Assembly: GCA_039810425.1 (NCBI GenBank)
Contig: JBDHWW010000020.1
Coordinates: 1 to 61,936, forward strand
DNA length: 61,936 nucleotides
Reading direction: 5' to 3'
Source of the DNA: Pseudobdellovibrionaceae bacterium
GTDB taxonomy: Bacteria > Bdellovibrionota > Bdellovibrionia > Bdellovibrionales > Bdellovibrionaceae
Below, in pieces: positions 241-57,209 of this stretch. Within the stretch, counting starts at the first letter, position 1, and each line of letters starts with the position of its first letter. Under the pieces are notes generated by a model. That model was not told the origin of the DNA, did no database searches, and saw only the letters and a list, made by a program, of their open reading frames with translations. Position numbers and translations under genes: made by a program.

Positions 241-1104
<864 letters not shown>

Positions 1105-5466: not shown

Positions 5467-5612
5467 TTATAGACTAAAGACATATCTGACGAGGGCCAAG
5501 AGGCCGGTTTTGGAGCCTGTGGCGATGGTATAGAAAGAAATGTTCGATTTACAGACGTTGGGGAAGCTCATTGGCTTTAAAAATCAGCGGCTTATGCCGT
5601 AAGTAAGCGTAT

Positions 5613-7086: not shown

Positions 7087-7088
7087 GC

Positions 7089-8810: not shown

Positions 8811-8893
8811 TGAGTCCTCCAGTTCACCAAACCTCAAAAATAAATGAATTCGCAGGTCTAGGTCCAGCATTGATGACCTTTTGACGCGCCCCT

Positions 8894-22028: not shown

Positions 22029-22433
22029 ATGCCTGACAACGATATACCGAAGACGGTAAGAGATTTTGTTTTTGAGTACATCGATTCGGTGGAGCAATTG
22101 GAGATTTTGCTCCTCCTCGAATCGGACTCAAAAAAAAGCTGGTCCCTGGCGGAACTGAGCGGACTCCTGCGTTCGAATCTCAATTCCGTCGAAAAGCGTA
22201 TCAGCCTGCTTCTCGCGCAAGGTCTTATTATTAAAAACGAAGAGTCCCACTTCTCCTTCTTTTTGGAGGACGCGGATCTTAATCAGACGATTCACAGTCT
22301 GGCTGATATTTACAAAGTTCATCGCTATAAAATTCTTGAAATGATTTTTTCGCCGATGAAGAAGAGTCGGGATTTAGCGGAAGCTTTCCGCCTTTCCCCG
22401 GCTAAACCAAACAAAGGAGACTCCAGTGGCTGA
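22029..22433 (+). CDS. Winged-helix-like protein of the type found next to DUF5985 genes
   Basis: IDSVEQLEILLLL...WSLAELSGLLRS...VEKRISLLLAQGLI HTH pattern; ends LAEAFRL. Confidence 0.7.
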   Translation: MPDNDIPKTVRDFVFEYIDSVEQLEILLLLESDSKKSWSLAELSGLLRSNLNSVEKRISLLLAQGLIIKNEESHFSFFLEDADLNQTIHSLADIYKVHRYKILEMIFSPMKKSRDLAEAFRLSPAKPNKGDSSG

Positions 22434-22689
22434 AACCGTTTATCTGTTATGTGCCGTCATGAGTATACTTTGCACGCTGCTGCTATTCCGCGGCTATCGC
22501 AAGAGCGCGAACAAACTCTTACTTTGGACGGCGCTGAGCTTTGCGCTAATGGCCTGCAATAATATTTTCCTGTACGTCGATCTGGCGATGCTCCCCAACA
22601 TGGATCTTCATGGGCCCTTCTGGCGGAACGTCTTAGGCACCTTATCGGGCGCAACCCTCCTTTACGGACTTATTTGGGAGCTGACATGA
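22426..22689 (+). CDS. DUF5985-family small membrane protein (3 TM)
   Basis: VYLLC...LLFRGY...LLLW...NNIFLYVDL. GTG start overlaps the upstream gene. Confidence 0.75.
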   Translation: MAETVYLLCAVMSILCTLLLFRGYRKSANKLLLWTALSFALMACNNIFLYVDLAMLPNMDLHGPFWRNVLGTLSGATLLYGLIWELT

Positions 22690-22982
22690 TGAGTATGAAC
22701 TATACACTCTTTCTTGCCGGCATCAGCATGGCGACCTTTGCCGCCTCTGGTTTATTCTTTGTGAAACTCTGGAGAGCCGCTCAAGATCGCTTCTTTGCGT
22801 TCTTTGCGATTGCCTGTGGTCTGCTGTCCATCGAGCGTGTCGTGGCCCTTTTCGTCCAAGGAGTTTTCGATTCCGACCTCGTACCACTGCCGGAGTCAAC
22901 GAGTTGGATCTATCTGATCCGTCTCTTGGCGTTTTTGATGATTGTGATTGCGATTGTCAGCAAGAACATGCACAAAAAATAA
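22686..22982 (+). CDS. DUF5985-family small membrane protein (3 TM), second type
   Basis: GLFFVKLWR...DRFF..FA...IER...YLIRLLAF...KN. ATGA overlap with the previous stop. Confidence 0.75.
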   Translation: MMSMNYTLFLAGISMATFAASGLFFVKLWRAAQDRFFAFFAIACGLLSIERVVALFVQGVFDSDLVPLPESTSWIYLIRLLAFLMIVIAIVSKNMHKK

Positions 22983-23003: not shown

Positions 23004-25016
23004 TCAGTGCGCGGCCAGGTTTGAGATCTGTGAAATCAAGAGGCGGCGATCTATCGGCTTGGTTAAATGATCTGAACAACCGGCCGCCAGGCAACGGTCC
23101 CGGTCTTCCTTCAGCGCGTGCGCCGTCAATGCGATGATCGGCCCCTCGTAGCCTTTACCTCGAAGTGTCGTCGTTGCTTCGTAACCGTCCATCTCGGGCA
23201 TTTGAATATCCATCAGGATAATGCCGTACGTGCCGTTCAGTGCTTTTTCAACTCCCTCAACGCCGTTGTTAGCGACTTCCACCTGAGCGCCCGCCCCGGT
23301 CAGGAAGCGGCTAATAAGAATTTGATTGATGGGCGCATCCTCAACAAGGAGAACTTTAATGCCCTGAAGTGCACTACTGTCGTTCATAGCCGGGAAGTCC
23401 TGTCTGATCTCAACAATTTCTTTTTCGAGTGAATCAAAATACGGAACGGCCCCGGCCGGCGTGCCGTTGACTTCGATCAAGAAGCAACTTCCCTCGCCGG
23501 AGTGACTGCTTTCAAGCGAGACGTTTCCGCCCAACGCTTCGGCAAGTTTGCGTGAAAGCGCCAAGCCCAACCCGGTGCCGCCAAAACGGCGCGTGGTCGA
23601 ACTATCGACCTGCACAAACGGATGAAAGAGTTTTTCCGCCAACTGGCGATCAATACCCACCCCCGTGTCTTTAATGCGGAAGGAAAGCCGATTGCCGCTC
23701 CAAGCGGCTTCGAGCACCACTTTGCCTTTTTCCGTAAACTTGACCGCATTACTGATCATATTCAATAAAATCTGGCGAAGACGCGTTGGATCCGTGATCA
23801 CTTTCTGAGGAATCTTGGTTTTAAAGTTAAATTCAAGACCCACGCCTTTGGCCTGCGCCTTCACCAGCATCAGCGTGTGTAGATCGCGCAAGAGCGAAGC
23901 GAGATTCACTTCGATATTTTCAATGTCCAAGCGGCCCGCTTCGACTTTTGAAATATCCAGAATTTCGTCGATAATTCTAAGTAACTGTTGACCGCTGCGC
24001 ATGATGGTCGTGAGGTTCTGCGTGCGCTCCTCAGCGGAAACATCAGAATTCAGCATCAACTCCGCAAAGCCCAGCATCGCCCCCAGCGGCGTGCGGATTT
24101 CATGGCTCATATTTGCCAAAAACTGCGTCTTTGCGACACTTGCGGCGACAGCGGCTTGCTTTGCATCGAAGATCTCGTCCTCGGCGATTTTTCTATCGTG
24201 GATGTCCATGCTCGTGCCGATCCACGATGTCACTTTGTCAAAGATGTCAAACTCAGGCACTTCGCGGACCGTGTGCCAGCGAAACTCACCATCGTGGCGG
24301 CGCACGCGGATCTCGATCTCAAACGGAGTTCCGCTGTTCATCGAATCAAGCCATGCTTTCAGGAAGATCCGCAAATCCTGGGGATGAATCGCATCCTGCC
24401 ATCCTGAGCCCACGCTTTGTTCTTGGGTCAACCCCGTATAGCTGGTCCATAGCCTATTGAAGTAATCCAAAGTCCCATCGACTTTCGATTTCCAGATCAT
24501 TACCGGAACCGCATCGGCAAGATTGCGATAACGCTTCAACGTTTCCATTTCAAACTGCGCAAGCTGCAGAAACCGGGCCTGTCGCTCGGTTTGGCGGATC
24601 ATTTCATTCTGCTCTTGCAACTGCCGTTTCTTAAAATAGAATTCGACAAAAAAGCTCACTTTAGAACGCAAAATCTGCGGTTCAAACGGTTTAAAGATAT
24701 AGTCCACCGCGCCGACTTCATAGCCGCGGTAAATATGCATGTCATCCTTGTTGATCGCCGTCACGAAGATGATCGGCGTATGACGGTATTGCTCATTTTG
24801 CCGAATACGACGGGCGGTTTCAAAACCGTCCATCTCCGGCATCTGAACATCCAGGAGGATCACGCCAAAATCATGCTGATCCAAAAGGCGCAGGGCTTCC
24901 AATCCTGACTGCGCCCGAATCAAGTTGACGTTTGGCAGGTTTAAAACAGCTTCTAAAGCAATGAATCCATCTAACCGGTCGTCAACGATAAGAATATCAA
25001 CTGGAGGATGTCGCAT
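23004..25016 (-). CDS. Hybrid sensor histidine kinase REC-PAS-HisKA-HATPase-REC
   Basis: ILIVDD/LLDVQMP, PAS (IHPQD), [13 protein letters not shown] and G boxes, C-terminal ILMDIQMP; no TM segment. Confidence 0.95.
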   Translation of the reverse strand: MRHPPVDILIVDDRLDGFIALEAVLNLPNVNLIRAQSGLEALRLLDQHDFGVILLDVQMPEMDGFETARRIRQNEQYRHTPIIFVTAINKDDMHIYRGYEVGAVDYIFKPFEPQILRSKVSFFVEFYFKKRQLQEQNEMIRQTERQARFLQLAQFEMETLKRYRNLADAVPVMIWKSKVDGTLDYFNRLWTSYTGLTQEQSVGSGWQDAIHPQDLRIFLKAWLDSMNSGTPFEIEIRVRRHDGEFRWHTVREVPEFDIFDKVTSWIGTSMDIHDRKIAEDEIFDAKQAAVAASVAKTQFLANMSHEIRTPLGAMLGFAELMLNSDVSAEERTQNLTTIMRSGQQLLRIIDEILDISKVEAGRLDIENIEVNLASLLRDLHTLMLVKAQAKGVGLEFNFKTKIPQKVITDPTRLRQILLNMISNAVKFTEKGKVVLEAAWSGNRLSFRIKDTGVGIDRQLAEKLFHPFVQVDSSTTRRFGGTGLGLALSRKLAEALGGNVSLESSHSGEGSCFLIEVNGTPAGAVPYFDSLEKEIVEIRQDFPAMNDSSALQGIKVLLVEDAPINQILISRFLTGAGAQVEVANNGVEGVEKALNGTYGIILMDIQMPEMDGYEATTTLRGKGYEGPIIALTAHALKEDRDRCLAAGCSDHLTKPIDRRLLISQISNLAAH

Positions 25017-25021
25017 ACTTC

Positions 25022-28000
25022 CTATTTTTCCTTCTTAAACCGCGAGTACATCACCGCCAACAAATGACTTTCATCCACTGGCTTTGTCACGTAGTCCGAA
25101 GCCCCGGCTTCTAAACATTTCTCACGGTCGCCTTTCATGGCTTTTGCCGTGAGCGAGATAATCGGAAGCTGACCAAACTCCGGAATCTTACGAATACCGC
25201 GAGTGGCCTCAATTCCATCCATCTCCGGCATCATCGTATCCATCAAAACAAGGTCGGTGTCCGGGTTTTCCTTAAGGACCGCAATACCTTGCTTCCCGTT
25301 CTCAGCATAGATCACGTTCATGCCGCGCATTTTTAAAATGCTTGTCAGTGCAAAGACGTTACGAACGTCGTCATCGACAACGAGAATTTTTTTACCCGTA
25401 AAATCCGCATCCACGGGAAGGGACTCCACCTCACGCGGCGCCTCGGTTGCTTCAAGCATGCCCAAGACATCGCCCACATACTTCTGCGGCAAATAAAGGG
25501 TGAAACGGCTACCGTGGCTCGGCTCAGACTCAACCTCAATAATACCGCCCAAAAGACGAGCGATTTCGCGGCTGATCGTAAGACCCAAACCCGTCCCACC
25601 GTATTTACGGCTGGTTGTACCATCGGCTTGCTGGAATGCTTCGAAAATCAGTTTCTGCTTCTCGGGAGCGATACCGATACCGGTATCTGTCACACGGAAC
25701 ATAAACGTGTTCTTACCTTTCAGTCCGAGCTCTTCAGCGTGCTTTTTATCCGCCAAACCAATCTCAAGCTTCACGCTGCCTCTCTCGGTGAACTTAAAGG
25801 CATTGGATAGCAAGTTTTTAAGGATCTGCTGCAAACGGTTTTCATCGGTGAACATCGCTTTCGGCAAGTGCGCCCCCATTTCAACCTTAAACTCCAACGT
25901 CTTGTGTTCGGCCACAGGACGGAAGGTCTGCTCGAGGTACTCGAGCACGCTTTCGAGTTCCACCGCCTTCGGATTGACCGGCATTTTTCCGGCTTCGACC
26001 TTGGAAAGATCGAGGATTTCGTTGATCAGCGCCAACAAGTCCTGACCTGCCGAGTGAACCGTGCTTGCGAACTTCACTTGCTCGCTGCTGAGGTTCTTGT
26101 CGCGGTTTTCAGCCAACGTTTTAGAAAGAATGAGCAAGCTATTCAGCGGCGTACGAAGTTCATGCGACATGTTCGCCAAGAACTCCGATTTGTATTTCGA
26201 AATAAGTGACAGCTGTTCGGCTTTCTCTTCCAGGGAGCGCGACGCCAGCTCCACCTCTTGGTTTTTGACCTCGAGGAGCTTTGCTTTGTCTTCGAGTTCT
26301 TTCGCCTGAGCTTCCAGTTCGGCATTGGAACGCTTCAACTCTTGCAGAAGTTCTTCCGTTCTCATGCTTGACGAGATCATGTTCAGGATAACCCCGATGG
26401 AATCCATCAGTTGGTCTAAGAAGTTGATATAGTTCTGGGAGAACGTGCGAGTTGAAGCCAATTCGATCACGGCTTTGAGCTCACCTTCAAAGAGCACCGG
26501 CAACACGATCACGTTGCGTGGTTTTTCGTCGTGAAGGCTTGAGCTGATCACCACGTAGTCTTCTGGAGAATGAGTCAAAAGAATGCGTTTTTTCTCAAAC
26601 GCGCACTGGCCCACCAGACCTTCTTTCAAACGATAGCGGTTCGAAACGTTTTTGCGTTCGGTGAACGCGTAGCTTGCAATCAGATTCAAGCTTTGTTGCT
26701 CATCGGACTCTGTTTCAAGCATGAAGAATGTTCCTTGATGGGCATCCACGAGCGGTGTCAGCTCCGACATAATCAACTGCGCCACCGCAGTGACTGAACG
26801 CTGACCCTGCATCATACTTGAGAACTTCGCGAGATTGGTTTTTAACCAGTCTTGCTCCGTATTTTTCTGAGTCGTATCTTTTAAGTTGCCGATCATGAAG
26901 TTGATATTCTCTGAAAGGGCGGCAACTTCGCCTTGGGCTTCAACGGTGATGGAACGGGTCAAGTCACCCTTTGTGACCGCGGTGGACACTTCGGCGATCG
27001 CACGGACTTGAGCCGTCAAGTTGCCCGCAAGCTGGTTCACATTGTCGGTCAAATCTTTCCAGGTTCCCGCTGCTCCAGGAACTTTTGCCTGGCCCCCCAG
27101 CTTCCCTTCGATACCCACTTCGCGGGCCACGGTCGTAACCTGATCCGAGAAGGTTCTCAGAGTATCCGTCATTGAATTGATGGTTTCCGCAAGAGCGGCC
27201 ACTTCCCCTTTGGCTTCAAGCACGAATTTTTGATTCAAGTCCCCGTTGGCGACCGCCGTGACGACCTTCACGATACCGCGCACTTGAGTGGTCAAGTTTG
27301 AGGCCATAAAATTAACGTTGTCGGTTAAGTCTTTCCAAGTCCCCGCAACCCCAGGAACGCGCGCCTGTGCGCCGAGCTTCCCTTCGATACCCACTTCACG
27401 AGCCACGGTGGTGACCTGGTCGGCAAAAATTCTGAGAGTGTCGGTCATTGAATTGATGGTTTCCGCAAGAGCGGCCACTTCCCCTTTGGCCTCAAGAACG
27501 AATTTTTGATTCAAATCGCCGTTGGCGACCGCCGTGACGACCTTCACGATACCACGCACTTGCTTTGTGAGGTTGGAGGCCATGAAGTTCACGTTGTCGG
27601 TCAAGTCTTTCCAGGTCCCGGAAACCCCGCGCACTTCCGCTTGGCCTCCGAGCTTTCCTTCCGTTCCAACCTCTTTCGCCACGCGAGTCACCTCGGAAGC
27701 AAAAGATGAGAGCTGGTCGACCATCTTGTTGATAACATCTTTGATTTGCAGGATTTCACCGCGCGCATCGACGGTGATCTTTTGTCCCAAATCGCCAGAG
27801 GCAATCGCCGTTGCTACTTTAGAAACGTCACGGAGCTGAACCGTCAGGTTCGAAGCCATCACGTTCACGTTGTCAGTCAAATCTTTCCAAGTCCCGGAGA
27901 CCCCTTTTACTTCCGCTTGGCCTCCGAGCTTTCCTTCCGTTCCGACCTCTTTCGCCACGCGAGTCACCTCGGAGGCGAAGGAGTTCAACTGATCCACCAT

Positions 28001-30514
28001 CGTATTGATGGTGTCTTTCAGCTCCAGGATTTCGCCGCGGGCATCGACGGTGATTTTTTGTGAAAGATCGCCTTTTGCCACCGCCGTCGTTACTTTGGCG
28101 ATGTTACGGACTTGAGTGGTTAAATTATTCGCCAGACCATTTACGTTGTCGGTCAAATCTTTCCAGGTTCCAGCAACACCTTTTACATCGGCCTGACCCC
28201 CAAGACGGCCTTCGGTGCCTACTTCTTTCGCCACACGAGTCACTTCAGCAGCAAAGCTTCTGAGCGTGTCCACCATGGTGTTAATGGTATCTTTGAGCTC
28301 GAGGATTTCACCTTTCGCGTCCACCGTGATTTTTTGTGAAAGATCGCCTTTTGCCACCGCCGTCGTTACTTTGGCGATGTTACGGACTTGCGCGGTCAGG
28401 TTGCCGGCAAGACCATTCACATTATCAGTGAGATCTTTCCAAGTCCCAGACACCCCTTTTACTTCCGCCTGTCCGCCGAGTCGGCCTTCGGTCCCTACTT
28501 CTTTCGCCACGCGAGTCACTTCGGCTGCAAACGAGTTCAGCTGATCCACCATGACGTTAATGGTGTTCTTGAGTTCGAAGATCTCGCCTTTGGCATCCAC
28601 CGTGATTTTTTGTGAAAGATCGCCTTTTGCCACCGCCGTCGTTACTTTGGCGATGTTACGGACTTGCGCGGTCAGGTTGCCGGCAAGACCATTCACATTA
28701 TCAGTGAGATCTTTCCAAGTCCCAGACACCCCTTTTACTTCCGCCTGTCCGCCCAGCTTTCCTTCCGTGCCTACTTCCTTCGCCACACGAGTGACTTCAG
28801 AGGCAAAAGACGACAGCTGGTCGACCATCTTGTTGATAACATCCTTGATCTGCAGGATTTCACCCTTTGCTTCAACCGTGATTTTTTGTCCAAGATCGCC
28901 GTTCGCAATAGAGGTCGCCACTTTAGACACGTCACGGAGCTGAACCGTCAGATTTGATGCCATCGCGTTGACGTTGTCGGTCAGATCCTTCCAAGTTCCA
29001 GACACACCCTTTACATCGGCCTGGCCACCGAGCTTACCCTCGGTACCCACTTCCTTCGCCATACGAGTGACTTCAGCAGCGAAACTTCGGAGGGTGTCCA
29101 CCATGGTGTTAATGGTATCTTTGAGCTCAAGGATTTCACCTTTCGCATCCACCGTGATCTTTTGTGACAAGTCCCCGTTGGCGACGGCCGTGGTTACTTT
29201 GGCGATGTTACGAACCTGGGCGGTCAGGTTACCGGCAAGACCATTCACATTATCAGTGAGATCCTTCCAAGTTCCAGACACACCCTTTACGTCGGCCTGG
29301 CCACCGAGCTTACCCTCGGTACCCACTTCCTTCGCTACGCGAGTGACTTCAGAGGCAAAGGAATTCAACTGGTCCACCATGACATTAATGGTATTTTTTA
29401 ATTCAGAGATTTCGCCGCGGGCATCAACGGTGATTTTTTGTGAAAGATCGCCTTTTGCCACCGCCGTCGTTACTTTGGCGATGTTACGAACCTGAGCGGT
29501 CAAATTATTCGCCAGACCATTTACGTTGTCGGTCAAATCCTTCCACGTACCCGATACGCCTTTTACGTCGGCCTGACCGCCGAGACGGCCTTCGGTACCC
29601 ACTTCCTTCGCCACACGAGTCACCTCGGCGGCGAAGGAAGACAACTGATCCACCATGACGTTGATGGTGTTCTTGAGTTCAAAGATCTCACCTTTGGCAT
29701 CCACCGTGATTTTTTGTGACAAATCCCCCTTGGCAACGGCGGTCGTCACTTTTGCGATATTACGTACTTGATCCGTCAAGTTTCCAGCAAGGATGTTTAC
29801 GTTATCAGTCAAATCTCTCCAGATACCAGACGCACCTTTTACGTCGGCCTGGCCACCGAGTTTTCCCTCGGTGCCCACCTCTTTCGCAACACGCGTTACT
29901 TCAGAGGCAAACGAATTCAGTTGATCCACCATGGCATTGACCGTTGTACCGATACGGAGGAATTCCCCTTTTACGGTTCGGCCATCAATTTCCAAGGACA
30001 TCTTTTGTGACAAGTCCCCTTTCGCAACGTGGGTGATGACCCGCGCGACCTCGGTTGTCGGCTGCACCAGGTCCCCGATGAGCAAGTTCACAGAGTCGAC
30101 ACTCGTCGCCCAGGCTCCGCGAACAGTTCCCATGGAAACACGTTCCGACATCTTACCTTCTTGGCCCACGGTGTTTCGCACGCGCGAAAATTCATTCGCC
30201 ATGCTTTCATTCATTTCAATAATATCGTTAAGAACTTCACCGATCTCGGCGATGATGCCCTCGTGAAGCTGCGGCATGCGCACATTGAACTCGCCTCGAC
30301 GAACCGCCTTTACCGTAAAAAGCAGCTGCCGAAGCTGTTCATGAGCCGTATTCAAAGGGAAATCGCCTTTGGGAATTTCGCGATAAAAAGGCGTGTTCGC
30401 CATGGGAGGGGCGTTGAGTTTTTTGGACTTTGCAACACTCGCCTTTTGACTTTTGCCAAGCTTAGATTTTTTGAGCTCGCCATTTTGTGAAGACCTCACT
30501 GATGGTTTTTCCAT
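25022..30514 (-). CDS. Cytoplasmic poly-HAMP hybrid histidine kinase (HAMPn-GAF-HisKA-HATPase-REC; Nik1/group III-like)
   Basis: 11 W(K/R)DLTDNVN units of 92 aa plus one degenerate unit, [22 protein letters not shown], single C-terminal REC. Confidence 0.96.
26930..30150 (-). repeat. Intragenic tandem repeat, 276-bp period (HAMP units)
   Basis: ~12 units; 28320-28477 and 28596-28753 are identical by eye. Outer boundaries approximate. Confidence 0.9.
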
Positions 30515-31964: not shown

Positions 31965-33590
31965 ATGAATCAAGAATATTTTGAATGGACCCTGTTATTA
32001 GCCCGTTGGTTGCACATCATCGTTGGTATCACGTGGATTGGCACCTCGATTTTCTTTATGTGGCTTGACCGCACATTCACGCCAAATCCCAATTCCAAAA
32101 ACGCCGGCCACGTGGGTGATCTGTGGATGGTTCACGGGGGTGGCTTCTATCATGTCGAAAAACTTTTGATGGGCCCCACCAAAGTCCCCGAAGAGCTTCA
32201 CTGGTTTAAGTGGGAGTCTTATTGGACTTGGATGAGCGGAATCTTTTTGCTCATCGCTATTTTCTACACCGGTAGCGGCACGTTCTTACTCGACAACAGC
32301 GTTTCAGGAATCACGTACTGGCAAGCCGTCGGCATTGGTGTTGGCTCGATTTTAGTTTCCTGGTTCTTTTATGACTTCCTGTGGGAATCAAAACTCACCA
32401 AACAAAAGCCCGTCATCGGCCACATTTTGACAATTCTCTGGCTTGCCGGAATGGCTTATTTCCTTTGCCATACCTTGAGCGGCCGTGCGGCTTATATTCA
32501 TATCGGCGCGATGCTCGGCACTTGGATGACGGCCAATGTGTTTCTCCGGATCATTCCCCGCCAAGTGAAAATGGTCGAGGCCGCAAAGAAGGGCGAACCG
32601 GTCCATCCAGACTGGGGTCAGAACGCGAAGAACCGTTCAACCCATAATACTTACTTCACCCTGCCTGTGATTTTCCTGATGCTCAGCAACCACTTTTCAC
32701 AAACCTATGGCAATCAGTGGAACTGGCTCATTTTACTTTTGATCAGTGCCGCAGGGGCCGCGATTCGTGAATTCTTTGTGGTGCGTTTGAAAAACCCGGC
32801 GCGCTCAAGAGCTTTTGCCGCCATCGGTCTCTGCCTCATTCTTGGAGTTGTCGTGTTTACACGCGAGAACACCGGCAGCACGGCCGCCGCTCAAGAAGCG
32901 CATCACGAGGCTCCTTCGCCTAAAACCGCAGCCGTCACGGCCGTTGCGGAGGGCACAGGGGGGGTGATGGGGGTTGTCAGCTTTAATGGCGACGCTCCTC
33001 AAACGGAAAAACTTCTTTTGCCGTTTGCATGCGCCTCTCATTACAACGGCGACGCCTATTCAAATGAGATTCTTATTAAAAATGGTAAGCTCAAAAACGT
33101 TCTCGTGCGTGTGGTAAAAGGCCTTGACGCCAAAACTTATACGGACGTACCGGCGGAGCCCGTCATCGTCGACCAAGTGGGCTGTCAGTACGAACCACGC
33201 GTGACCGCAGCCCGCGTGGGGCAAAAAGTGGAGTTCATCAATAGCGATGCGCTTTTCCACAACGTGCGTTCTATCACAACCAGCAACGAAGTGTTCAACA
33301 TTTCAATGCCGAATAAAAATGACCGCTTCACCAAAATCTTCCAGAAGCCAGAGATATTCGTGCAAACCAAGTGCAGTGTTCACCCATGGATGAATGCCTA
33401 TGTCGCCGTGATGGACCACCCGTTCTACAGCGTATCTAACGACCGTGGCGAGTTTGTGATTAAAAACCTGCCGCCGGGGCATTACACGCTAGAGGCGTGG
33501 CATGAGGTCTTTGGCACTCAAACCAAAGAAATCGATATCAAAGCCAACGACACGACCAAGGAAGAATTTGAATTTAAGAAAAAGGACTAA
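31965..33590 (+). CDS. puuD: PuuD-type integral-membrane urate oxidase domain fused to a cupredoxin-like (not cytochrome c) domain
   Basis: RWLHIIVGITWIGTS, LWMVHGGGFY, LHWFKWESYWTWMSG, SGRAAYIHIGAMLGT, RSTHNTYFTLPVIFLMLSNH. C-terminus has HNV...CSVHPWM and no CxxCH. Confidence 0.9.
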   Translation: MNQEYFEWTLLLARWLHIIVGITWIGTSIFFMWLDRTFTPNPNSKNAGHVGDLWMVHGGGFYHVEKLLMGPTKVPEELHWFKWESYWTWMSGIFLLIAIFYTGSGTFLLDNSVSGITYWQAVGIGVGSILVSWFFYDFLWESKLTKQKPVIGHILTILWLAGMAYFLCHTLSGRAAYIHIGAMLGTWMTANVFLRIIPRQVKMVEAAKKGEPVHPDWGQNAKNRSTHNTYFTLPVIFLMLSNHFSQTYGNQWNWLILLLISAAGAAIREFFVVRLKNPARSRAFAAIGLCLILGVVVFTRENTGSTAAAQEAHHEAPSPKTAAVTAVAEGTGGVMGVVSFNGDAPQTEKLLLPFACASHYNGDAYSNEILIKNGKLKNVLVRVVKGLDAKTYTDVPAEPVIVDQVGCQYEPRVTAARVGQKVEFINSDALFHNVRSITTSNEVFNISMPNKNDRFTKIFQKPEIFVQTKCSVHPWMNAYVAVMDHPFYSVSNDRGEFVIKNLPPGHYTLEAWHEVFGTQTKEIDIKANDTTKEEFEFKKKD

Positions 33591-33593
33591 GCC

Positions 33594-33917
33594 ATGATCA
33601 GCACTCACATTCTTGACACCAGCATCGGCAGTCCTGCGGCGGATGTTGCGGTTTCTTTGAAAAGAAAAGACGGCGACGCCTGGAAAGACCTTGGCAAGGG
33701 CGTCACGGATTCAGACGGCCGTTTCGTTTTTGACTGTGAAAAAGTCATCGGCACTTATCAGATTGTTTTTGATACCGGGGACTACTTTAAAAAATCCGGC
33801 CGCGAGAGCTTTTTTATGAACACGCCGGTGATTTTTAAAATCTCGGATGTGAGTCGTAAGTATCACGTGCCTCTCTTGTTAAACCCCTTTGGATACTCCA
33901 CCTATCGCGGAAGTTAA
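33594..33917 (+). CDS. uraH: 5-hydroxyisourate hydrolase (transthyretin-like)
   Basis: ISTHILDT, TDSDGR, YHVPLLLNPFGYSTYRGS; no signal peptide. Confidence 0.97.
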   Translation: MISTHILDTSIGSPAADVAVSLKRKDGDAWKDLGKGVTDSDGRFVFDCEKVIGTYQIVFDTGDYFKKSGRESFFMNTPVIFKISDVSRKYHVPLLLNPFGYSTYRGS

Positions 33918-33930
33918 GGCGGCGGCCGTT

Positions 33931-36900
33931 ATGTCTCAACGAGAAATCCCCTACTATCTGGACTATGCCTCTGAAAATCTTTTGAATTACTTGCAGCCGG
34001 AATTAAAGCCTGTTCCCGGCAATCCGGAACTGCAACAAGTCGGCAGCATGGGGGGCCTTGAAAGCCCCGAGTCCTTGAAGTTTTTGTGTGAACTTTACGA
34101 TGCGGTAAAGCCGGAACTGCAAAAAGTTCTTGAACAGCGGATTGTCGATCGCAAGTTTATCGATGAGCGTACCAAAGCCTGCTATGAGCTCAATAAGTCG
34201 TTAGGCATTGATTTCCTTGATCCGCGCTATCATACGGTTCTCGGCCAAGAAGATGCCGGGGGGCGTATCGTCATGGGCCCTAAAAATGATTTTTACTGCA
34301 AGCCCGGCGGCGGAAAGCCGGTCGCTGAGATTCCGAAATTCTTGCAAGGCAACCATGTGACGTTGTTCGGTCCACCCGATGATGCCAAACTTTCAATCAA
34401 CGCGATGAATGCCTACCACCGCAAGCTCCACGCTGAACCCGCAGTGGTGGCGGAGCTTTTAAAAACTCACACCAGTGAGGCCAAATGGGGTGCTGACGAC
34501 GAGGACTCCAAAACGCCCCTGCGCCGCGATTTGATTTCGGCCGGCGAAAACCTCACCGGATGCTTTAACAAAAACCTTCACTTCGTCGATCCAAAATCGC
34601 ATAAAGAATACCAACTCGAAAAAGAGCATCTTTCACTGCCGGTGAAACGATTTCCGGGGCTGGCGATGCCGTGCTTGTTCCTCTACTACAAAAACAACCC
34701 CTTGCCCTTGCATATGTATGATTTTGCGTTGCACCTCTTTGAACACTGGCAAAACCCGGAAGCTTTGGCATTCTATGTACCCAAACTCGAAACCGAAGAA
34801 GAAGCCCGCTACATCCGCCTCCTGATTGAGACCGCAGAGAAAATGATCGCAAAACTCCACCCGGCCTATCAGGTTGGTACGGTCCGCTTGTTGATCGTGC
34901 TTGAAAATCCACGCGCGGTTTTCCGCGTGAACGAAATCATGGATGAACTCTATCCGTACTTTGCCGGCGCTTCCCTCGGGTGGCATGACTACTTGGGATC
35001 TACCGCAAGACTCTTTAAAGAGGATGCGAACTATCGCATCCCGGTGAAGGCCGATCCGAACATCGTGATTAAATACATTAAAGGCTCGCATGATCTTCTT
35101 GCCAATGTCGTGGGTCCGCGCGGTGGGATTAAGATCGGTGGCATGTACGGCATTCTTCCCATCGACACCGACCTCACGAATCCCTCTTTTCAGATCACCA
35201 TGAAGGGCTTCATCAAAGACGTCATCACACAGATGAAACGTCAGCTCTCGGGTTTCTGGGTCGCCCACCCGGATTTTGTGCGCTTAGGCCTTGCCCTGAT
35301 TGAAGCGTGGAAGTTTCATGCCTCAGGCGATTCAAGCAAACTCGAGATGATGATTAAGTCTTTGCTCGAGCCAAAGTATCACAAAGAGATTTTGGATTTC
35401 GTTTTCGGTCCAGACATCCAGGGCCTTGATATTACGGACCCCCTTTATGCCCGCTCACTGATTGTTGCCGACATTAAGGAATCGACTTATATCGCGAACA
35501 ATCACCCGGAAGAAATCCGTTACAACATCTTCCAATCGCTTCAGTATCTGACCGACTGGCTTTCCGGAAATGGCTGCGTCGCCCTGCCAACGCAGATCGA
35601 AGGAATCCCCGCGCGCGTGATGGACGACCTGGCCACGGCCGAGCGATCACGTTGGGAAGTCTGGCATGAACTTCACCATGGCCGCTTTAGTATCGGCAAC
35701 TTTTTAAAAATCGCCCACGAGGAACTGCACTTTATCCGTAAGGATCTTTCAAACGGAAAAAAGATCGTTCAAGTGAAATGGAATGAACGCACGGAAAAAT
35801 GGTACCCGGTGGCCATGAATCTGATGCTTCACTTGATGACCAGCGATCATCCGGTGGAGTTCGCCTCTGAATTACTTTTGCCATTTACTTTAGATTCCAT
35901 CCGCCACTCGCAGGACCCTTGGCAAGCAGTGACGAAGATCGATCCTGTGAAGTACGCGATTAAACCATATGTTACGCGCTTTAATTATTACTTCTCGATG
36001 TGTGGGAGCCTCGCTTTTGCCACCGAAATGGCAAAGAACTTGACGGTGGATCTTGCGCAAACTGAAAAGTTGATCCGCCAGTTTGATATGGCTCAGATTC
36101 TAGAAGCCGCAAGCTTCCATGGGGATATTGGCGAAGCCAAGAAAACTCTCGATGCCATGGCCTCGAAAGAACAGGCCCTCGTTCATCAAGAAGATAAAGC
36201 GCTCCAAGAAGAGCTGCTGGTTCAGGGGAAAGCCTACCGCGAGAAGTTCGGCATGAAGTTTTTGATTTCAGCCCAGGGAAAATCCGGCAAGGAACTATTG
36301 ACGGCGCTGCAAAATCGCAGGAACAACTCGCTGGCGGCTGAAATGGACCATGCGCGCGCAGCGCTTTGGGAAATCACCAAAAAGCGCCTCACCGCTCATC
36401 CCATGAATCAGCTGCAAGATTTTATCACCGAGGCGCTGAAGCGCCACAACGTCAACGCCGCCCAGGTTTCAATTTCAACCGGCGAAGGTCTTTTACAAGA
36501 TCTGGCCTTCGGCCAGGCCACGACGGGGACCTGGTTTGAAGTCGCCTCGCTGAGTAAAACCCTCGGCAGTTGCTATGCGATGGAATACTTCCGCAAAAAA
36601 GGTATTCCGCTCACTACCCCCGTCAACGCGCTCTTCGCAAAAAGCTCCTCGGGCTTTAGGTTAAAATCCCTCAACCGGCAACATCCCGAATGGGCGGACC
36701 AAGTCACGTTGGCTCACTTGATGAGTCACGCCGCCCTGAACATGCATTATGTGATCGGCACTCCGGCAAACGAACCGATGCAAAATCTCAAGGAACTTGT
36801 TGAAGGCTCTGTCGGGGTTATCAACGAACCGGGCACGAAATTCCAATACTCGGGTGCAGGCTTTTTAGTGCTGGAACACCTTATTGAGGCGCTGGAGGGA

Positions 36901-38616
36901 AAACGTATTCAAGACCTCACTCGTCCGTTTTTGGATCAATTGGGACTGACAGACTTTTCATTTGAGCAAAAAAATCTGCCGGGAGTACAATACGCAACGG
37001 CCTATGATGTTGCGGGAGTTGAAATCCCAGGAGGCCGCAAGCTCTTCCCCGCTTTTGCCGCGGGCGCGATGGGGACAGCTCACGCCATCGAAGAATTCTT
37101 AACCGCCCTCACAAAGGCGTTTCATGGCGTGAAAGGCTTTGGGCCGATCTCGCATGATACGGCGATGCGGATGCTGTATGGAACAGATAAAGGCTGCCGT
37201 AAGTTCATGGGCACGAAAATGGGCCTCGGCATCTTTACCGCGGAAGCCGGACCGAATCGCCTCGCGATCCATCAGGGAGCCAACGATGGCTATCGTTGCT
37301 TGTTTGCCCATTGCTATGACGGTCCTGCCAAAGGCCAGGGCTTTACGGTTCTTTGCAATGCCGAACTCAACGGCGTGCTTTTCATCTCCGAAGTTGCGCA
37401 AGCTCTGCTGAAAGAATTCAATATCGCGGGCATTGACTACCGCCGCTTTAAGAAAACTTTCGTCAGTTCAGAAATTCCACAAGAGCAGATCGTCAACATC
37501 GGCTATCGTGATTTGATTTTCGATGCCTTCGAATCCGATTTGCCGGAAGAGATCATCGAAAAGGGTCCTCTTGATCCATTGGCGAAATACAATTTTGCGA
37601 TGGGTGCAAAGATTATCGAAACAACGAATCAAGGCTTTGCCCGCGCGGCGAATCTGCTATCGGACCATCTGCCGTTATTTGACCCGAAACTCTTTGGCCG
37701 CCAAGGTAAGATCATGGACAGCTGGGAAACCGTCCGGCACAACCAAAAAACCTGCGATGAGTTGGTTTTTGAATTGAAGAAACCTGCAGCGATCCACTAT
37801 GTCGCCGTTTCCACCAAGTACCATCTCGGCAATCAGGCCCAGTTTACAAAGCTTGAGGGCTTGAACGACGACACAAAAGCATGGCAGGAACTCATTCCAA
37901 AGACGGCTCTTGAAGGCCATGCACTGAAGCGGATGACAACGTCAACGGGTGTGGCGAAATTCCGCCAGATCAAGATGTCTCTCTATCCCGATGGGGGTAT
38001 TTCACGTCTGGGACTTTATGACGAGTCTTTGCCTGAAACGGAAAAATCCAAGTACGATTCACCGGAGCGCGCAAAGAGCGAGGTTTTTACGGATGAAATC
38101 CCCAAAACTCAGCGCTCACTGGCGCCGAAGTATGATGCCAGCGCCAAGGAGCTCGCCGCGAACTGGCAGGCCGCTGGGGATGAGGTCGATGTTGCGAGTC
38201 TTGCCTATGGTGCAAAGGTCGTGAAAGCGACGAACGAGCACTTTGGCCCCGCGGCTCAGGTGATTTCACCCTACCCTCCACTTCATATGTTTGACGGGAT
38301 GGAGTCGGCTCGCAGCCGTGACGAGGGGCACTTTGAGGAAATCGTCATTGAGCTTGCAAGACCCGCGGCAATTCATCGTTTGGAACTCGATTTTACGTAC
38401 TTTGTGAATAACAATCCGTTAGAAGTGTCCGTCGAAGGCCTGGCCGCCGGCGCCTGGATGCCCCTTGTTCCCCGCACCAATGTGAAAGCCTACGCGGCAA
38501 ATAAATTCACGATGGACCTTTCGCTGGCGGAAAAAATCACCCAAATAAAGCTTACGGCTTTTCCGGACGGTGGGATCAATCGGGTTAAAGCTTTTGCGCG
38601 AAGGGGTCCGCTATAA
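33931..38616 (+). CDS. Four-domain fusion: malate synthase / OHCU decarboxylase / beta-lactamase-family serine hydrolase / allantoicase
   Basis: One uninterrupted ORF. Malate synthase: FYVPKLE, WVAHP, WLSGNGCV, MDDLATAE. UraD: HGDIG, EQA, YREKFGMKFLI. Serine hydrolase: SLSK, YSG, HQG. Allantoicase: DSWET/PDGGISRL and DGMESAR/PDGGINRV. ATG 33931 preferred over TTG 33889. Confidence 0.9.
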   Translation: MSQREIPYYLDYASENLLNYLQPELKPVPGNPELQQVGSMGGLESPESLKFLCELYDAVKPELQKVLEQRIVDRKFIDERTKACYELNKSLGIDFLDPRYHTVLGQEDAGGRIVMGPKNDFYCKPGGGKPVAEIPKFLQGNHVTLFGPPDDAKLSINAMNAYHRKLHAEPAVVAELLKTHTSEAKWGADDEDSKTPLRRDLISAGENLTGCFNKNLHFVDPKSHKEYQLEKEHLSLPVKRFPGLAMPCLFLYYKNNPLPLHMYDFALHLFEHWQNPEALAFYVPKLETEEEARYIRLLIETAEKMIAKLHPAYQVGTVRLLIVLENPRAVFRVNEIMDELYPYFAGASLGWHDYLGSTARLFKEDANYRIPVKADPNIVIKYIKGSHDLLANVVGPRGGIKIGGMYGILPIDTDLTNPSFQITMKGFIKDVITQMKRQLSGFWVAHPDFVRLGLALIEAWKFHASGDSSKLEMMIKSLLEPKYHKEILDFVFGPDIQGLDITDPLYARSLIVADIKESTYIANNHPEEIRYNIFQSLQYLTDWLSGNGCVALPTQIEGIPARVMDDLATAERSRWEVWHELHHGRFSIGNFLKIAHEELHFIRKDLSNGKKIVQVKWNERTEKWYPVAMNLMLHLMTSDHPVEFASELLLPFTLDSIRHSQDPWQAVTKIDPVKYAIKPYVTRFNYYFSMCGSLAFATEMAKNLTVDLAQTEKLIRQFDMAQILEAASFHGDIGEAKKTLDAMASKEQALVHQEDKALQEELLVQGKAYREKFGMKFLISAQGKSGKELLTALQNRRNNSLAAEMDHARAALWEITKKRLTAHPMNQLQDFITEALKRHNVNAAQVSISTGEGLLQDLAFGQATTGTWFEVASLSKTLGSCYAMEYFRKKGIPLTTPVNALFAKSSSGFRLKSLNRQHPEWADQVTLAHLMSHAALNMHYVIGTPANEPMQNLKELVEGSVGVINEPGTKFQYSGAGFLVLEHLIEALEGKRIQDLTRPFLDQLGLTDFSFEQKNLPGVQYATAYDVAGVEIPGGRKLFPAFAAGAMGTAHAIEEFLTALTKAFHGVKGFGPISHDTAMRMLYGTDKGCRKFMGTKMGLGIFTAEAGPNRLAIHQGANDGYRCLFAHCYDGPAKGQGFTVLCNAELNGVLFISEVAQALLKEFNIAGIDYRRFKKTFVSSEIPQEQIVNIGYRDLIFDAFESDLPEEIIEKGPLDPLAKYNFAMGAKIIETTNQGFARAANLLSDHLPLFDPKLFGRQGKIMDSWETVRHNQKTCDELVFELKKPAAIHYVAVSTKYHLGNQAQFTKLEGLNDDTKAWQELIPKTALEGHALKRMTTSTGVAKFRQIKMSLYPDGGISRLGLYDESLPETEKSKYDSPERAKSEVFTDEIPKTQRSLAPKYDASAKELAANWQAAGDEVDVASLAYGAKVVKATNEHFGPAAQVISPYPPLHMFDGMESARSRDEGHFEEIVIELARPAAIHRLELDFTYFVNNNPLEVSVEGLAAGAWMPLVPRTNVKAYAANKFTMDLSLAEKITQIKLTAFPDGGINRVKAFARRGPL

Positions 38617-42511: not shown

Positions 42512-43501
42512 TCACATGAAATCCGCGACTTTAGCGACGAGCTTGCCGCGCACTCGGTGGGCGGCCAAGCGCTCCAAGCCTAAAGGAATGTTCTCAAACG
42601 GCAGAATTTCAGTCAGTGTTGAAAAGACTTTTTTATCTTCAATCAGTTTTGAAATTTCAGCACCGATCACGCCAAGATCTTTCTTGTCGTCGTGAGACCC
42701 CAGAGTGAAAGCACCAGCTAAAAAAACCATTTGAACACTCAACGCCTTTTCAAAGAGCGGAATATTTGATACATCCGGCACGTCCACAAGCCCCACGAAG
42801 TGACCCGCGAAACCCAGCAATTTGAAGTTCTCGGCGACCTGAGGCCCTCCGAGAGTGTCCAGCACGAGGCTCACGCCCCGCCCATTGGTGTAATCCATGA
42901 TCTTCTCAAAAATATTTTCATCGTGGTAGTTGATTACAAACTCGGCTCCCAAATCACGCACGAATGAAAAATTGTCCTTTGAGCAGGTGGTGATGACACG
43001 AAGGCCTTGGCGTCGCGCAAATTGGATGGCAAAACTGCCGACGCCCCCTGAACCTGCATGGATTAATACTTTCTGGCCCTCGCGTAAATTCAATTTGCGG
43101 TTAAAAACTTGATAAGCCGTCCAACCCGCGACAGGAATTGCCGCCGCTTCTTCAAACGAACTCTTTGCCGGCATCAACGCAAGAGCACTGGCGGAAGTCA
43201 CAGCGTACTCGGCAAAACTCCCTGGACGGGCGATATCAAAAAGCCCGTACACACGGTCGCCAACTTTAAGGTCTTTAACATCCGCGCCAACTTTATCCAC
43301 AACTCCGGCGCCATCAGCCCCGAGCGTGTGTGGATAACTCCAGGCGACGTGCCCCCAATCCGCAGCTTTATAGTCCACGGGGTTGAGCCCCACCGAATGA
43401 ATGCGCACCCGCACCTCATCGGACTTTGGCTCTGGTATCGGCAGGTCCTCGATATGCAGACTCCCACGATCACCGGCTTTATCCAACACGAAGGCTTTCA
43501 T
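42512..43501 (-). CDS. NAD(P)H-dependent quinone-oxidoreductase-like MDR enzyme
   Basis: LNPVDYK, LGADGAGVV, HAGSGGVG, GKLV; no catalytic Zn ligands. Start ATG 43501. Confidence 0.9.
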   Translation of the reverse strand: MKAFVLDKAGDRGSLHIEDLPIPEPKSDEVRVRIHSVGLNPVDYKAADWGHVAWSYPHTLGADGAGVVDKVGADVKDLKVGDRVYGLFDIARPGSFAEYAVTSASALALMPAKSSFEEAAAIPVAGWTAYQVFNRKLNLREGQKVLIHAGSGGVGSFAIQFARRQGLRVITTCSKDNFSFVRDLGAEFVINYHDENIFEKIMDYTNGRGVSLVLDTLGGPQVAENFKLLGFAGHFVGLVDVPDVSNIPLFEKALSVQMVFLAGAFTLGSHDDKKDLGVIGAEISKLIEDKKVFSTLTEILPFENIPLGLERLAAHRVRGKLVAKVADFM

Positions 43502-43502
43502 A

Positions 43503-44153
43503 TCAGAAATCCCCCTCTTTAACGTAAGGTTGGCTCCAGAGGCAAACCTGCAAGAGCACGGACTTGATCCACGCCTGATACATGCATTCAACATCTTCCG
43601 CATTGTGGGTTTGTCTTTTTGCCAGGAATGGTTTCAAAGTCGCCGTCAGCGGATAAACCAGCGCTAAAATATAGCGGAAGCTTATTTTCTCGACAGAGTC
43701 CGCATCGTCGGTTTGGTTTTTTCTTGTAAGATGTCTTAGCGCTATTTCATGCTGATAGTTCAGCCACTGCTGATCGTAGTTCGCATCGGCCGTGTCTAAG
43801 ATCCACTGTTTAAATCGCAGACGGACCGAATCCATATAATCTTTATTCAAGCGATGATCGTTCTTGTGGCTAAAGAAAATGGCGAGCTGCGGCTCTACTT
43901 GAATGAAGCTATACCAGACATCAAGAATGTCATCGGTTTGATCCTCAAGCACTTCACGTGACATGCGAATGTACTTTTCATCCTCATCGGTCCAAAGAAT
44001 GGTATTTTTTAAAAGCGCCAGCTCTTTCAAAGACACCGGGCTTTTCGTAACTATTTTTGTGCCATAGGTGTAGCCAGGAATCCCCTTCCCACCATGAAGA
44101 GGGGCCTTAAACTTTTTAGATCTGTCCTGATGGGTTGTACCGGAATGTTGCAT
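43503..44153 (-). CDS. Protoglobin (single-domain haem globin)
   Basis: IPGYTYG, ILDVWY, RFKQWILDT, YQHEIALRH, KNQTD and LWSQPYVKEGDF match the archaeal protoglobin pattern. Confidence 0.92.
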   Translation of the reverse strand: MQHSGTTHQDRSKKFKAPLHGGKGIPGYTYGTKIVTKSPVSLKELALLKNTILWTDEDEKYIRMSREVLEDQTDDILDVWYSFIQVEPQLAIFFSHKNDHRLNKDYMDSVRLRFKQWILDTADANYDQQWLNYQHEIALRHLTRKNQTDDADSVEKISFRYILALVYPLTATLKPFLAKRQTHNAEDVECMYQAWIKSVLLQVCLWSQPYVKEGDF

Positions 44154-44316
44154 CGAAAATCTCCTTATTCATACTGCATGAGTGCAATTTATTGTGAATT
44201 CAGAGTAAGTTTTCGATGTCGTGAACTCCGCCGAACTATTGGAAGATATCGGAATACAAAGTCTAGTTCTTGCGTTCAATCCGCTAAATAAACCACGGCG
44301 CGCGCGTTTTCTCCGG

Positions 44317-45213
44317 CTAGTATTGCCAAGGGAATTTTGAAAAGTTCTTCGGGCGTTTTTCGAGGAAAGAATCCCGGCCCTCTTTGGCTTCTTCAGTGCC
44401 GTAAGCTAAACGGGTCGCCTCACCAGCAAAGAGCTGCTGACCCACAAGACCATCGTCGATCATATTAAAGCCGTATTTCAACATACGCATCGCGGTGGGG
44501 CTCTTGGAGTTCATCTCGCGCGCCCATTTCAGTGCCACATTCTCAAGTTCCGCGTGTGGCACCACGGCGTTCACCATGCCCATGTCGAAAGCTTCTTGAG
44601 CCGTGTAGTTTGCACCCAAGAAAAAGATCTCGCGGGCGCGCTTTTGTCCGACCATGCGGGCCAAGTATGCGGACCCATAACCGCTATCAAAGCTTGCGAC
44701 GTCTGGATCCGTTTGTTTAAAGACCGCGTGCTCTTTGCTCGCCAAAGTTAAATCGCAAACCACGTGCAAAGAGTGGCCACCACCTACAGCCCAGCCCGGT
44801 ACGACCGCCATCACCACCTTTGGCATAAAACGAATTAAGCGTTGAACTTCCAGAATGTGTAAGCGGCCTAAGCGCGCCAAGTCCATCTTGTTCATCGCTT
44901 CGCTCCCAGAGCTTTCGTATTTATAACCGTCTTTACCGCGGATGCGCTGGTCACCGCCGGAGCAGAATGCCCAGCCGCCGTCTTTCGACGAAGGACCATT
45001 GCCGGTGAGGATCACAACGCCCACATCCGGAGTCACGCGCGCATGTTCCAAAGCCGTGTAGAGCTCATCCACGGTTTGTGGACGAAAGGCATTGCGAACT
45101 TCAGGACGGTTCAAAGCAATGCGAACGGTGCCCTGACCTTTGGCGCGGTGATATGTGACGTCGTTGAATTTGAATTCCTTGATTTCAGTCCAAAGTTCCG
45201 GATTGAAAGACAT
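44317..45213 (-). CDS. menB: 1,4-dihydroxy-2-naphthoyl-CoA synthase
   Basis: NRPEVRNAF, FCSGGDQ, GGGHSLH, SFDSGYGSAYLAR. Confidence 0.97.
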   Translation of the reverse strand: MSFNPELWTEIKEFKFNDVTYHRAKGQGTVRIALNRPEVRNAFRPQTVDELYTALEHARVTPDVGVVILTGNGPSSKDGGWAFCSGGDQRIRGKDGYKYESSGSEAMNKMDLARLGRLHILEVQRLIRFMPKVVMAVVPGWAVGGGHSLHVVCDLTLASKEHAVFKQTDPDVASFDSGYGSAYLARMVGQKRAREIFFLGANYTAQEAFDMGMVNAVVPHAELENVALKWAREMNSKSPTAMRMLKYGFNMIDDGLVGQQLFAGEATRLAYGTEEAKEGRDSFLEKRPKNFSKFPWQY

Positions 45214-55981: not shown

Positions 55982-56185
55982 GTTCCCCTCCAAATAGTCT
56001 GCCATTAGTTGGTGGCAGGTAGAAACGTCGGACCGTATTTCCGACATATATTTGCACTTACTCAGGAACAATGACTAACAATGCGCCCGAACGATGACAA
56101 TACATTTTACTTACATGATACAGCACGTTGGAGGACATTGTTTCGTCCGCACCAAGAATGGTATGTAAGACCTTAGAGGATTTTA

Positions 56186-57199: not shown

Positions 57200-57209
57200 A
57201 GGTCCGACT

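Follow-up and report, generated by a model that had tools for sequence, protein, structure and literature searches.

The conversion of urate to glyoxylate requires urate oxidase, UraH, UraD, allantoinase, allantoicase and ureidoglycolate lyase (PMC13751858). Only two allantoinase families are named in the available text of the purine-degradation papers cited: AllB/DAL1 (TIGR03178), an amidohydrolase barrel, and PuuE/HpxB (TIGR03212), with a polysaccharide-deacetylase fold. The membrane urate oxidase PuuD, as described, carries a C-terminal cytochrome c whose CXXCH motif is strictly conserved (PMC4562309), and in zebrafish a protein with a malate synthase (MS) fold, DrMSL/UGL, is a proven ureidoglycolate lyase and no malate synthase (PMC10120013). 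Here we describe a three-gene operon at positions 31965 to 38616 of a 61,936-nt stretch of DNA (the window; contig JBDHWW010000020.1 of assembly GCA_039810425.1) from a member of the Pseudobdellovibrionaceae. It encodes a PuuD, a UraH and a four-domain fusion protein, and we think it likely that this is a urate-degradation operon in which a beta-lactamase-fold domain of the fusion serves as a new, serine-dependent allantoinase. The pathway is a known one, with two, possibly three, undescribed enzyme variants.

A compact operon for urate degradation

The operon comprises the following features, in which OHCU is 2-oxo-4-hydroxy-4-carboxy-5-ureidoimidazoline:

31965 to 33590, + strand: puuD, membrane urate oxidase, 541 residues; PF06181 (Urate_ox_N) at residues 5-298, E 3e-109; periplasmic-type C-terminal region without CXXCH
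33153 to 33416, + strand: cupredoxin domain of PuuD (about residues 397-484), predicted type-1 copper ligands H432, C470, H473 and M476, inside a transthyretin-like beta-sandwich
33594 to 33917, + strand: uraH, 5-hydroxyisourate (HIU) hydrolase, 107 residues, no signal peptide; TIGR02962 score 124.7 bits against a cut-off of 87.45
33931 to 35940, + strand: fusion domain 1 (residues 1 to about 670), divergent MS fold, MS TIM-barrel plus MS_C
35998 to 36396, + strand: fusion domain 2 (residues 690-822), OHCU decarboxylase (UraD); OHCU_decarbox Pfam match at residues 709-820
36397 to 37545, + strand: fusion domain 3 (residues 823-1205), beta-lactamase-fold serine hydrolase and candidate allantoinase; PF00144 match at residues 829-1143
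37594 to 38616, + strand: fusion domain 4 (residues 1222-1561), two allantoicase repeats, PF03561 twice

The initial annotation had the three genes co-directional with gaps of 3 nt and 13 nt, and the coordinates of the open reading frames (ORFs), which lie head to tail, agree; judged by spacing alone, they may be co-transcribed. A Pfam scan of 45 window ORFs likewise bore out that no transporter, transcription regulator or xanthine dehydrogenase adjoins them. The fusion ORF (33931-38616, + strand) gives 1561 residues from its ATG, and a TTG at 33889 opens the same frame; no membrane segment is predicted in its product. A search that scored 7999 candidates gave 636 matches, and because all 120 homologues listed among these have the same four domains, at 59-100% identity, we rejected a frameshift or assembly artefact as the origin of the fusion. 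These 120 fusions were also used for the conservation figures below. The closest named homologues among the matches listed come from Bdellovibrio sp. HCB2-146 (73%) and HCB337 (70%), followed by a Bacteriovorax and a Planctomycetes record. The fusion was confirmed in 216 GTDB stretches, and the best 80 of these, fetched for locus counts, hold the UraD and allantoicase domains in 79 cases each, uraH in 65, puuD in 48 and xdh genes in 21-26. No record in a plasmid collection covered 80% of the fusion. Consecutive enzymes of the pathway are likewise fused in allantoin synthase, the UraD-UraH fusions of plants, diatoms and bacteria (PMC13751858); here, UraH is separate and UraD is instead joined to three downstream domains.

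Family membership was judged by the cut-offs of TIGR03178 (AllB), TIGR03212 (PuuE), TIGR01344 (malate synthase A), TIGR02961 (allantoicase), TIGR02962 (HIU hydrolase) and TIGR03180 (OHCU decarboxylase). The UraD domain scores 67.5 bits on PF09349 (cut-off 24) with the first ~38 model positions missing, matches OHCU decarboxylases in the PDB at E 4e-8 and conserves H730 and E747. The allantoicase domain matches yeast allantoicase at E 2e-30 and belongs to a divergent clade with 21-25% identity to canonical allantoicases. Equivalog scores speak against both assignments, with 72.1 against 139.4 bits for UraD on TIGR03180 and 190.3 against 277.9 for allantoicase on TIGR02961.

Recognisable genes of the operon thus cover four of the six steps from urate to glyoxylate, and two fusion domains are left without an assigned step. 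The initial annotation had counted up to six steps in three genes. A compact urate-degradation operon is supported, and the route is probably more complete than that: with an allantoinase in the beta-lactamase-fold domain and a ureidoglycolate lyase in the MS domain, the operon would take six steps to glyoxylate, and malate formation by the MS domain would add a seventh.

The beta-lactamase-fold domain as a probable third kind of allantoinase

Judged from the exclusion pattern, from its fusion partners and from its motifs, domain 3 is very probably an undescribed third kind of allantoinase, dependent on a serine. It sits between UraD and allantoicase, in pathway order, and would catalyse the same reaction at the same place in the pathway, between OHCU decarboxylase and allantoicase, as AllB and PuuE, from which it differs in being an unrelated, penicillin-binding-protein-like serine hydrolase. 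It has the PF00144 fold, the SxxK nucleophile motif, the catalytic tyrosine and the third motif, here S873-L-S-K876, Y973-S-G and H1114-Q-G, each conserved in at least 98% of the listed fusions. Its overall conservation (0.68) equals that of its UraD and allantoicase neighbours (0.66-0.67).

The predicted structure of the domain has a predicted local distance difference test (pLDDT) score of 96.3 and is closest to the IS11 esterase 7spn (Z 35.2, root-mean-square deviation 2.8, 336 aligned residues), within a set of matches at Z 31-35 that comprises family VIII esterases, the Ochrobactrum D-amino acid amidase and the R61 DD-peptidase. With this class C beta-lactamase/family VIII esterase/D-amino acid amidase superfamily it shares the fold and the SxxK, Y and H-x-G motifs; it differs from it in having at most 22% identity to the solved members listed, a place inside a cytoplasmic fusion, and signature motifs of its own, HxxxxMHYV and HQ[GA]AN[DE]G. 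A homologue search with the domain, run against every 50%-identity representative, yielded 100 proteins with E values no higher than 1e-30, and the subfamily forms one clade (Shimodaira-Hasegawa-like approximate likelihood ratio support 100) in a quick tree with 11 generic relatives for comparison. Only generic beta-lactamase clusters were returned by an ESM Atlas search. We rejected a class C beta-lactamase (resistance enzyme), since identity to AmpC-type structures is 15-18% and the domain is internal to a fusion, and equally an antibiotic-resistance or cell-wall role, on the grounds of context and location (an internal domain of a protein with no predicted membrane segment).

The exclusion argument comes from 401 genomes of the same phylum, each at least 90% complete, which were searched for UraD, the beta-lactamase-fold domain, AllB and PuuE. 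Among the 104 genomes with an OHCU decarboxylase, 72 have the domain only, 29 have AllB only, one (G263) has both and two have neither; the 297 genomes without the decarboxylase hold the domain in no case and AllB in one. PuuE was found in 0/401, and the PuuE model does ring in a Caulobacter control. Of the two genomes with neither, one (G294) has the genes on a contig of 3547 nt that ends inside alc, and in the other (G371) the UraD match is weak and partial. Co-occurrence of the domain with UraD follows from the fusion itself, so that the information lies in the absence of AllB. In the loci examined, the alternative cassette reads puuD-allB-alc-uraD-uraH-DUF6986, or close variants of this, and maps one-to-one onto the fusion operon with AllB in the slot opposite the beta-lactamase-fold domain; three genera (g110, g166 and g122) each hold both cassette types, in different genomes.

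A further 25 fusion genomes, reached via the GTDB loci and titled Planctomycetota, Phycisphaerales, Myxococcales, Oligoflexus and others, have AllB above the cut-off in 0/25 and PuuE in 0/25, and three of their top five AllB matches below the cut-off were checked, all of them dihydropyrimidinases. The genome that carries the operon (99.88% complete, 149 contigs, stated contamination 2.74%) has no TIGR03178 match over the cut-off, in the operon or elsewhere. A known but unlinked allantoinase was rejected there, as both PF01979 matches are other enzymes above their own cut-offs, a dihydroorotase and HutI, and no PuuE was found. Two small contigs of this genome, C107 and C129 (loci L141 and L144), have ORFs unlike the rest and are possible bin contamination.

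Several points count against this assignment. The Fisher p of 3e-22 for the genome counts overstates the case, because cassettes swap as wholes and related genomes are not independent. G263 carries AllB, fused to UraD, together with a beta-lactamase-allantoicase gene; a dihydropyrimidinase, in principle able to act on allantoin, is present in some of the fusion genomes of Planctomycetota and Myxococcales; the completeness of the 25 further genomes is unstated, which limits the AllB and PuuE absences in them; and the tree is the quick version, not the finished search.

The G263 genes occupy two places (L025:6386-8236 and L026:624-8728). One is the AllB-UraD fusion of 617 residues, and the other is a separate cluster of a cytochrome-type puuD, the beta-lactamase-allantoicase gene (772 residues), a class V aminotransferase, a single allantoicase repeat and a stand-alone MS-fold gene.

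Homologues in microbial eukaryotes

Beta-lactamase-allantoicase fusions also occur in Biecheleria cincta, Incisomonas marina and an Oithona nana assembly, and Phaeocystis cordata has a stand-alone protein. In one protein of the dinoflagellate Polykrikos kofoidii (P0228, 1004 residues), the beta-lactamase-fold domain shares a chain with a lyase of the AllA type (PF04115, E 7e-33) and with an allantoicase that scores above the cut-off of TIGR02961. Because this allantoicase groups with the canonical type (34-37% identity, against ~20-25% to the fusion type), the fusion would have arisen independently, and as it already contains a ureidoglycolate lyase and an allantoicase, allantoinase is the step that remains between allantoin and glyoxylate. 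Set against this, P0228 is a single transcript assembly and possibly chimeric.

Scored with a pattern that we take to describe peroxisomal targeting signals of type 1 (PTS1), a PTS1-type C-terminal tripeptide is found in 8 of the 22 near-complete stand-alone homologues, the origin of which is stated for few of the 22; the background is 0.29% per position within the same proteins, and 2 of the 120 bacterial-type four-domain fusions end in such a tripeptide. In eukaryotes, part of purine catabolism takes place in peroxisomes (PMC9244630, PMC8919083). The Incisomonas marina fusion (P0188) has EF-hand motifs between its domains and a PTS1-type tripeptide at its C-terminus. The fusion of the P0329/P0238 cluster is present in a genome assembly of the copepod Oithona nana and in ENA contigs, and may be a true animal gene or come from an associated protist.

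The MS-fold domain: lyase, malate synthase or both

The MS domain is ~25% identical to E. coli malate synthase A (AceB). The counterparts of AceB residues R166, E250, D278, D447, C438, M330, W365 and P369 are invariant in the listed fusions. Among these, R240, D566, E325 and D353 of the fusion correspond to what we take to be the catalytic arginine and aspartate and the magnesium-binding glutamate and aspartate of the E. coli enzyme. At the presumed acetyl-CoA site, K153, M405, P447 and C549 are kept, and the positions of T95, F118, L122 and A331 are changed. Other near-invariant residues occupy the positions of E. coli T95, F118, L122, R168, R276, W277 and A331; the substrate-site changes include R276 to W351, W277 to H352, T95 to F146, F118 to D190 and L122 to K194.

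The zebrafish enzyme ties the MS fold to allantoicase and purine breakdown, carries an Arg276Ile change (a numbering assumed to be that of AceB) and has lost its acetyl-CoA site (PMC10120013). The position of R276 is thus altered in both proteins. By the available description in that paper, the fusion domain appears to keep residues that DrMSL lost, and it differs further in being bacterial, fused and ~670 residues long with insertions. A bifunctional ureidoglycolate lyase/malate synthase has been proposed as the ancestral state (PMC10120013).

Genomic context points to a lyase. AllA was found in 0/72 fusion genomes, that of the operon included. The 31 genomes with AllB fall into 26 with DUF6986, 4 others with AllA, and the last one, G263, with a stand-alone MS gene of the fusion type; DUF6986 itself was found in 0/14 fusion genomes tested and 0/4 AllA genomes. 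We regard DUF6986 as a candidate ureidoglycolate lyase; the sole match in its PDB search was citrate lyase (E 0.007). DUF6986 (PF22484) ends the AllB-type cassette in loci L019-L024, L027 and L028 (genomes G113, G303, G216, G208, G096, G173, G275 and others). Stand-alone relatives of the MS domain, ~680-700 residues long, occur in Desulfogranum, Myxococcota and Bradymonadaceae records. In one locus, seen twice among 80 metagenome loci (L155/L156), such a gene lies beside genes for ureidoglycine aminohydrolase (UGlyAH) and an allantoate amidohydrolase-family protein, which form the other route to ureidoglycolate, and the fetched stretch has no allA. Because the MS domain fills the genomic slot of AllA or DUF6986, and because the stand-alone copy adjoins the UGlyAH route, a role as ureidoglycolate lyase is quite likely.

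The L155/L156 locus (13-9986) also holds an ABC transporter, a regulator and a 226-residue ORF without an NCBIfam match at 1e-15, which looks to us like a hydantoin racemase. Its MS-fold gene shares 64% identity with a protein of Desulfogranum marinum.

Whether the domain also condenses glyoxylate with acetyl-CoA to malate is evenly balanced. The malate end point of the initial annotation gains from the retained catalytic and metal residues of malate synthase A, and is left insecure by the substrate-site changes and the lyase-like genomic slot. Four further points argue against one or the other activity: the TIGR01344 score is 129.5 bits against an equivalog cut-off of 594.5; all 4 AllA genomes, which inform the slot argument, belong to one family; a lyase is not strictly required, since ureidoglycolate decays spontaneously (PMC3793230); and the zebrafish and Nematostella enzymes do not combine lyase with malate synthase activity (PMC10120013).

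A PuuD with a predicted copper domain

The operon's PuuD has the full-length PF06181/DUF989 membrane domain within a purine cluster and shares this domain and the linkage to uraH and uraD with Atu2314 of Agrobacterium fabrum (PMC4562309). It differs in that the place of the CXXCH cytochrome is taken by a cupredoxin with the motif C-x-x-H-P-W-M, and no CXXCH follows the membrane domain. The C-terminal region matches a blue copper protein (5fc9, E 7e-7) and amicyanins in the PDB, and its structural model (pLDDT 92) has a cupredoxin inserted in a transthyretin-like sandwich, with fold matches to plastocyanin, amicyanin and NirK. H432, C470, H473 and M476 are invariant in 42 aligned PuuD sequences. 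By fold and by this His/Cys/His/Met ligand set, the domain is predicted to be a type-1 cupredoxin that binds copper. Among 64 PuuD ORFs in the fetched loci, 45 are of the cupredoxin type, 17 have CXXCH and 2 have neither, counts that are not independent since loci overlap; in the membrane domain, 45 positions are invariant across 12 copper-type and 14 cytochrome-type sequences. The words 'copper' and 'cupredoxin' are not mentioned in the available part of PMC4562309.

A literature search that reached few subscription papers turned up neither the fusion nor a serine-hydrolase allantoinase nor a copper PuuD, and the single match of one of its queries concerned LACTB2; the main text of PMC13751858 has no mention of 'lactamase' or 'serine hydrolase'.

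Proposed pathway and physiology

Urate would be supplied by unlinked genes for a guanine deaminase and xanthine dehydrogenase-like proteins, which are present and whose activity we infer. PuuD would oxidise urate to 5-hydroxyisourate at the membrane, with electrons passing to its own blue-copper domain rather than to cytochrome c. By family membership, UraH would then yield OHCU and the fused UraD (S)-allantoin. The beta-lactamase-fold domain is proposed to form an acyl-enzyme at Ser873, for which Lys876 and Tyr973 would act as base, and so to open the hydantoin ring and give allantoate; the allantoicase domain, as a divergent homologue, would split this into urea and ureidoglycolate. The MS-fold domain would release urea and glyoxylate from the latter, and perhaps join glyoxylate and acetyl-CoA to malate. 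The purine nitrogen would be lost as urea, with the electrons and two carbons kept.

The genome search that the initial annotation called for, for xdh and guaD, did turn up both gene types away from the operon: an Xdh-like cluster with xdhC at C2:16005-20987 (L130), whose best model is PucD, below the cut-off, and a Bacillus-type guanine deaminase on contig C91. All 72 fusion genomes have an XdhB-family gene. Next to the operon, many relatives have xanthine dehydrogenase genes of the XdhAB type, which the genome's own PucD-type cluster does not resemble (26% identity). Urease was not found in this genome and was found in 1/71 other fusion genomes; neither urea carboxylase nor an NCS1 or NCS2 permease was found in it. 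With no urease or urea carboxylase found, nitrogen probably leaves as urea, and the pathway appears to dispose of purines while salvaging electrons and two carbons, and not to serve nitrogen uptake. Searches of the same genome found PrpB only and no isocitrate lyase, and no glyoxylate carboligase, second malate synthase or AllA; three of its five M20 matches were scanned, and none fits the allantoate amidohydrolase model.

If the assignments hold, a conserved family now annotated as 'serine hydrolase' gains a function, about one-fifth of the Bdellovibrionota genomes in the sample, and probably several algae and protists too, have a pathway gap closed, and the beta-lactamase fold is seen to be capable of opening a ring derived from purines. 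With the MS-fold domain, the bifunctional ancestor that has been proposed can be tested directly, and four steps on a single chain, with a urate oxidase that needs no haem attachment, would be of interest for the design of urate-degrading enzymes.

Alternative explanations

The allantoinase reading could be right with the MS domain acting as a ureidoglycolate lyase only, so that the pathway ends at glyoxylate and passes to glycine via an aminotransferase, with no malate. We give this somewhat less than an even chance. It accommodates the invariant substrate-site changes, among them R276 to W351 at the position also altered in the zebrafish lyase, the lack of a malate synthase adjacent to AllA cassettes (the three AllA genomes tested have an ordinary malate synthase A elsewhere, next to what we take, by its N-terminal sequence, to be isocitrate lyase), and the class V aminotransferases on contig C72 of the operon's genome and beside the G263 cassette. 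It fits poorly with the retention of the catalytic base D566 and of K153, M405, P447 and C549 in at least 118 of the 120 fusions, given that the zebrafish lyase lost its acetyl-CoA site, and with the fused domain being the sole malate synthase match in a genome in which glyoxylate carboligase was not found. Tentatively, the MS domain may be a living bifunctional lyase/malate synthase in one chain from OHCU to malate, accompanied by a third allantoinase class in Bdellovibrionota, Planctomycetota and peroxisomes in several protist lineages and fed by a blue-copper urate oxidase. Far less probable is that domain 3 performs the ureidoglycolate step or a side reaction, that the MS domain is a plain malate synthase, and that the ring of allantoin is opened elsewhere, by a promiscuous or unlinked enzyme, for instance dihydroorotase. 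Two steps, allantoinase and ureidoglycolate lyase, do lack a recognised gene in fusion genomes, the MS domain does retain R240, E325, D353, D566, C549 and M405, and the genome's dihydroorotase reaches 273.6 bits on the AllB model, under its cut-off of 357.85. Yet P0228 has a ureidoglycolate lyase and still carries the beta-lactamase-fold domain, and 27 of the 31 AllB genomes also have no AllA and, G263 excepted, do without that domain. Moreover, acyl-enzyme chemistry of serine hydrolases suits cyclic amides rather than a C-N lyase reaction.

The initial annotation had read the operon as a predator's means of regaining carbon and electrons out of digested prey nucleic acid, with a nuclease and a LOG-family gene in the window possibly acting upstream. 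This is unlikely, and predation is not specifically supported by the distribution. The closest named full-length homologues, among the matches listed, are indeed in Bdellovibrio and Bacteriovorax records; the near-absence of urease fits carbon and electron recovery, or nitrogen disposal, better than nitrogen uptake; and the lack of any NCS1 or NCS2 permease found in the operon's genome fits an internal purine source. Against this, 328 of the 401 genomes of the phylum are without the beta-lactamase-fold domain, including 29/30 in genus g10 and 15/15 in g3, and the domain occurs outside the phylum, with the fusion in records titled Planctomycetota, Phycisphaerales and Oligoflexus and the domain also in protists. 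The nuclease-like and LOG genes lie ~17-19 kb away without a shown link.

Surroundings of the operon

The two genes proposed to act upstream are:

55496 to 56071, - strand: HNH-like ORF, no Pfam or NCBIfam match
57081 to 57752, + strand: LOG-family gene, passes TIGR00730

Of that proposal, the LOG family assignment was borne out, the HNH-like ORF matched no Pfam or NCBIfam family, and no link to the operon is apparent for either. A gene for an SLT transglycosylase lies 146 nt upstream of the operon on the same strand, and a VWA-domain gene is convergent with it. The GC content of the operon resembles that of the remaining window, and a scan for promoters and terminators gave results at chance level. 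Elsewhere in the window, a hybrid histidine kinase of 1830 residues (25022-30514, - strand) has many near-identical repeats, by eye HAMP, and is followed by a PAS hybrid kinase (23004-25016, - strand) with a DUF5985 gene nearby (22029-22982). A protoglobin gene lies between zinc-dehydrogenase-family and crotonase-family genes at 42512-45213 on the - strand.

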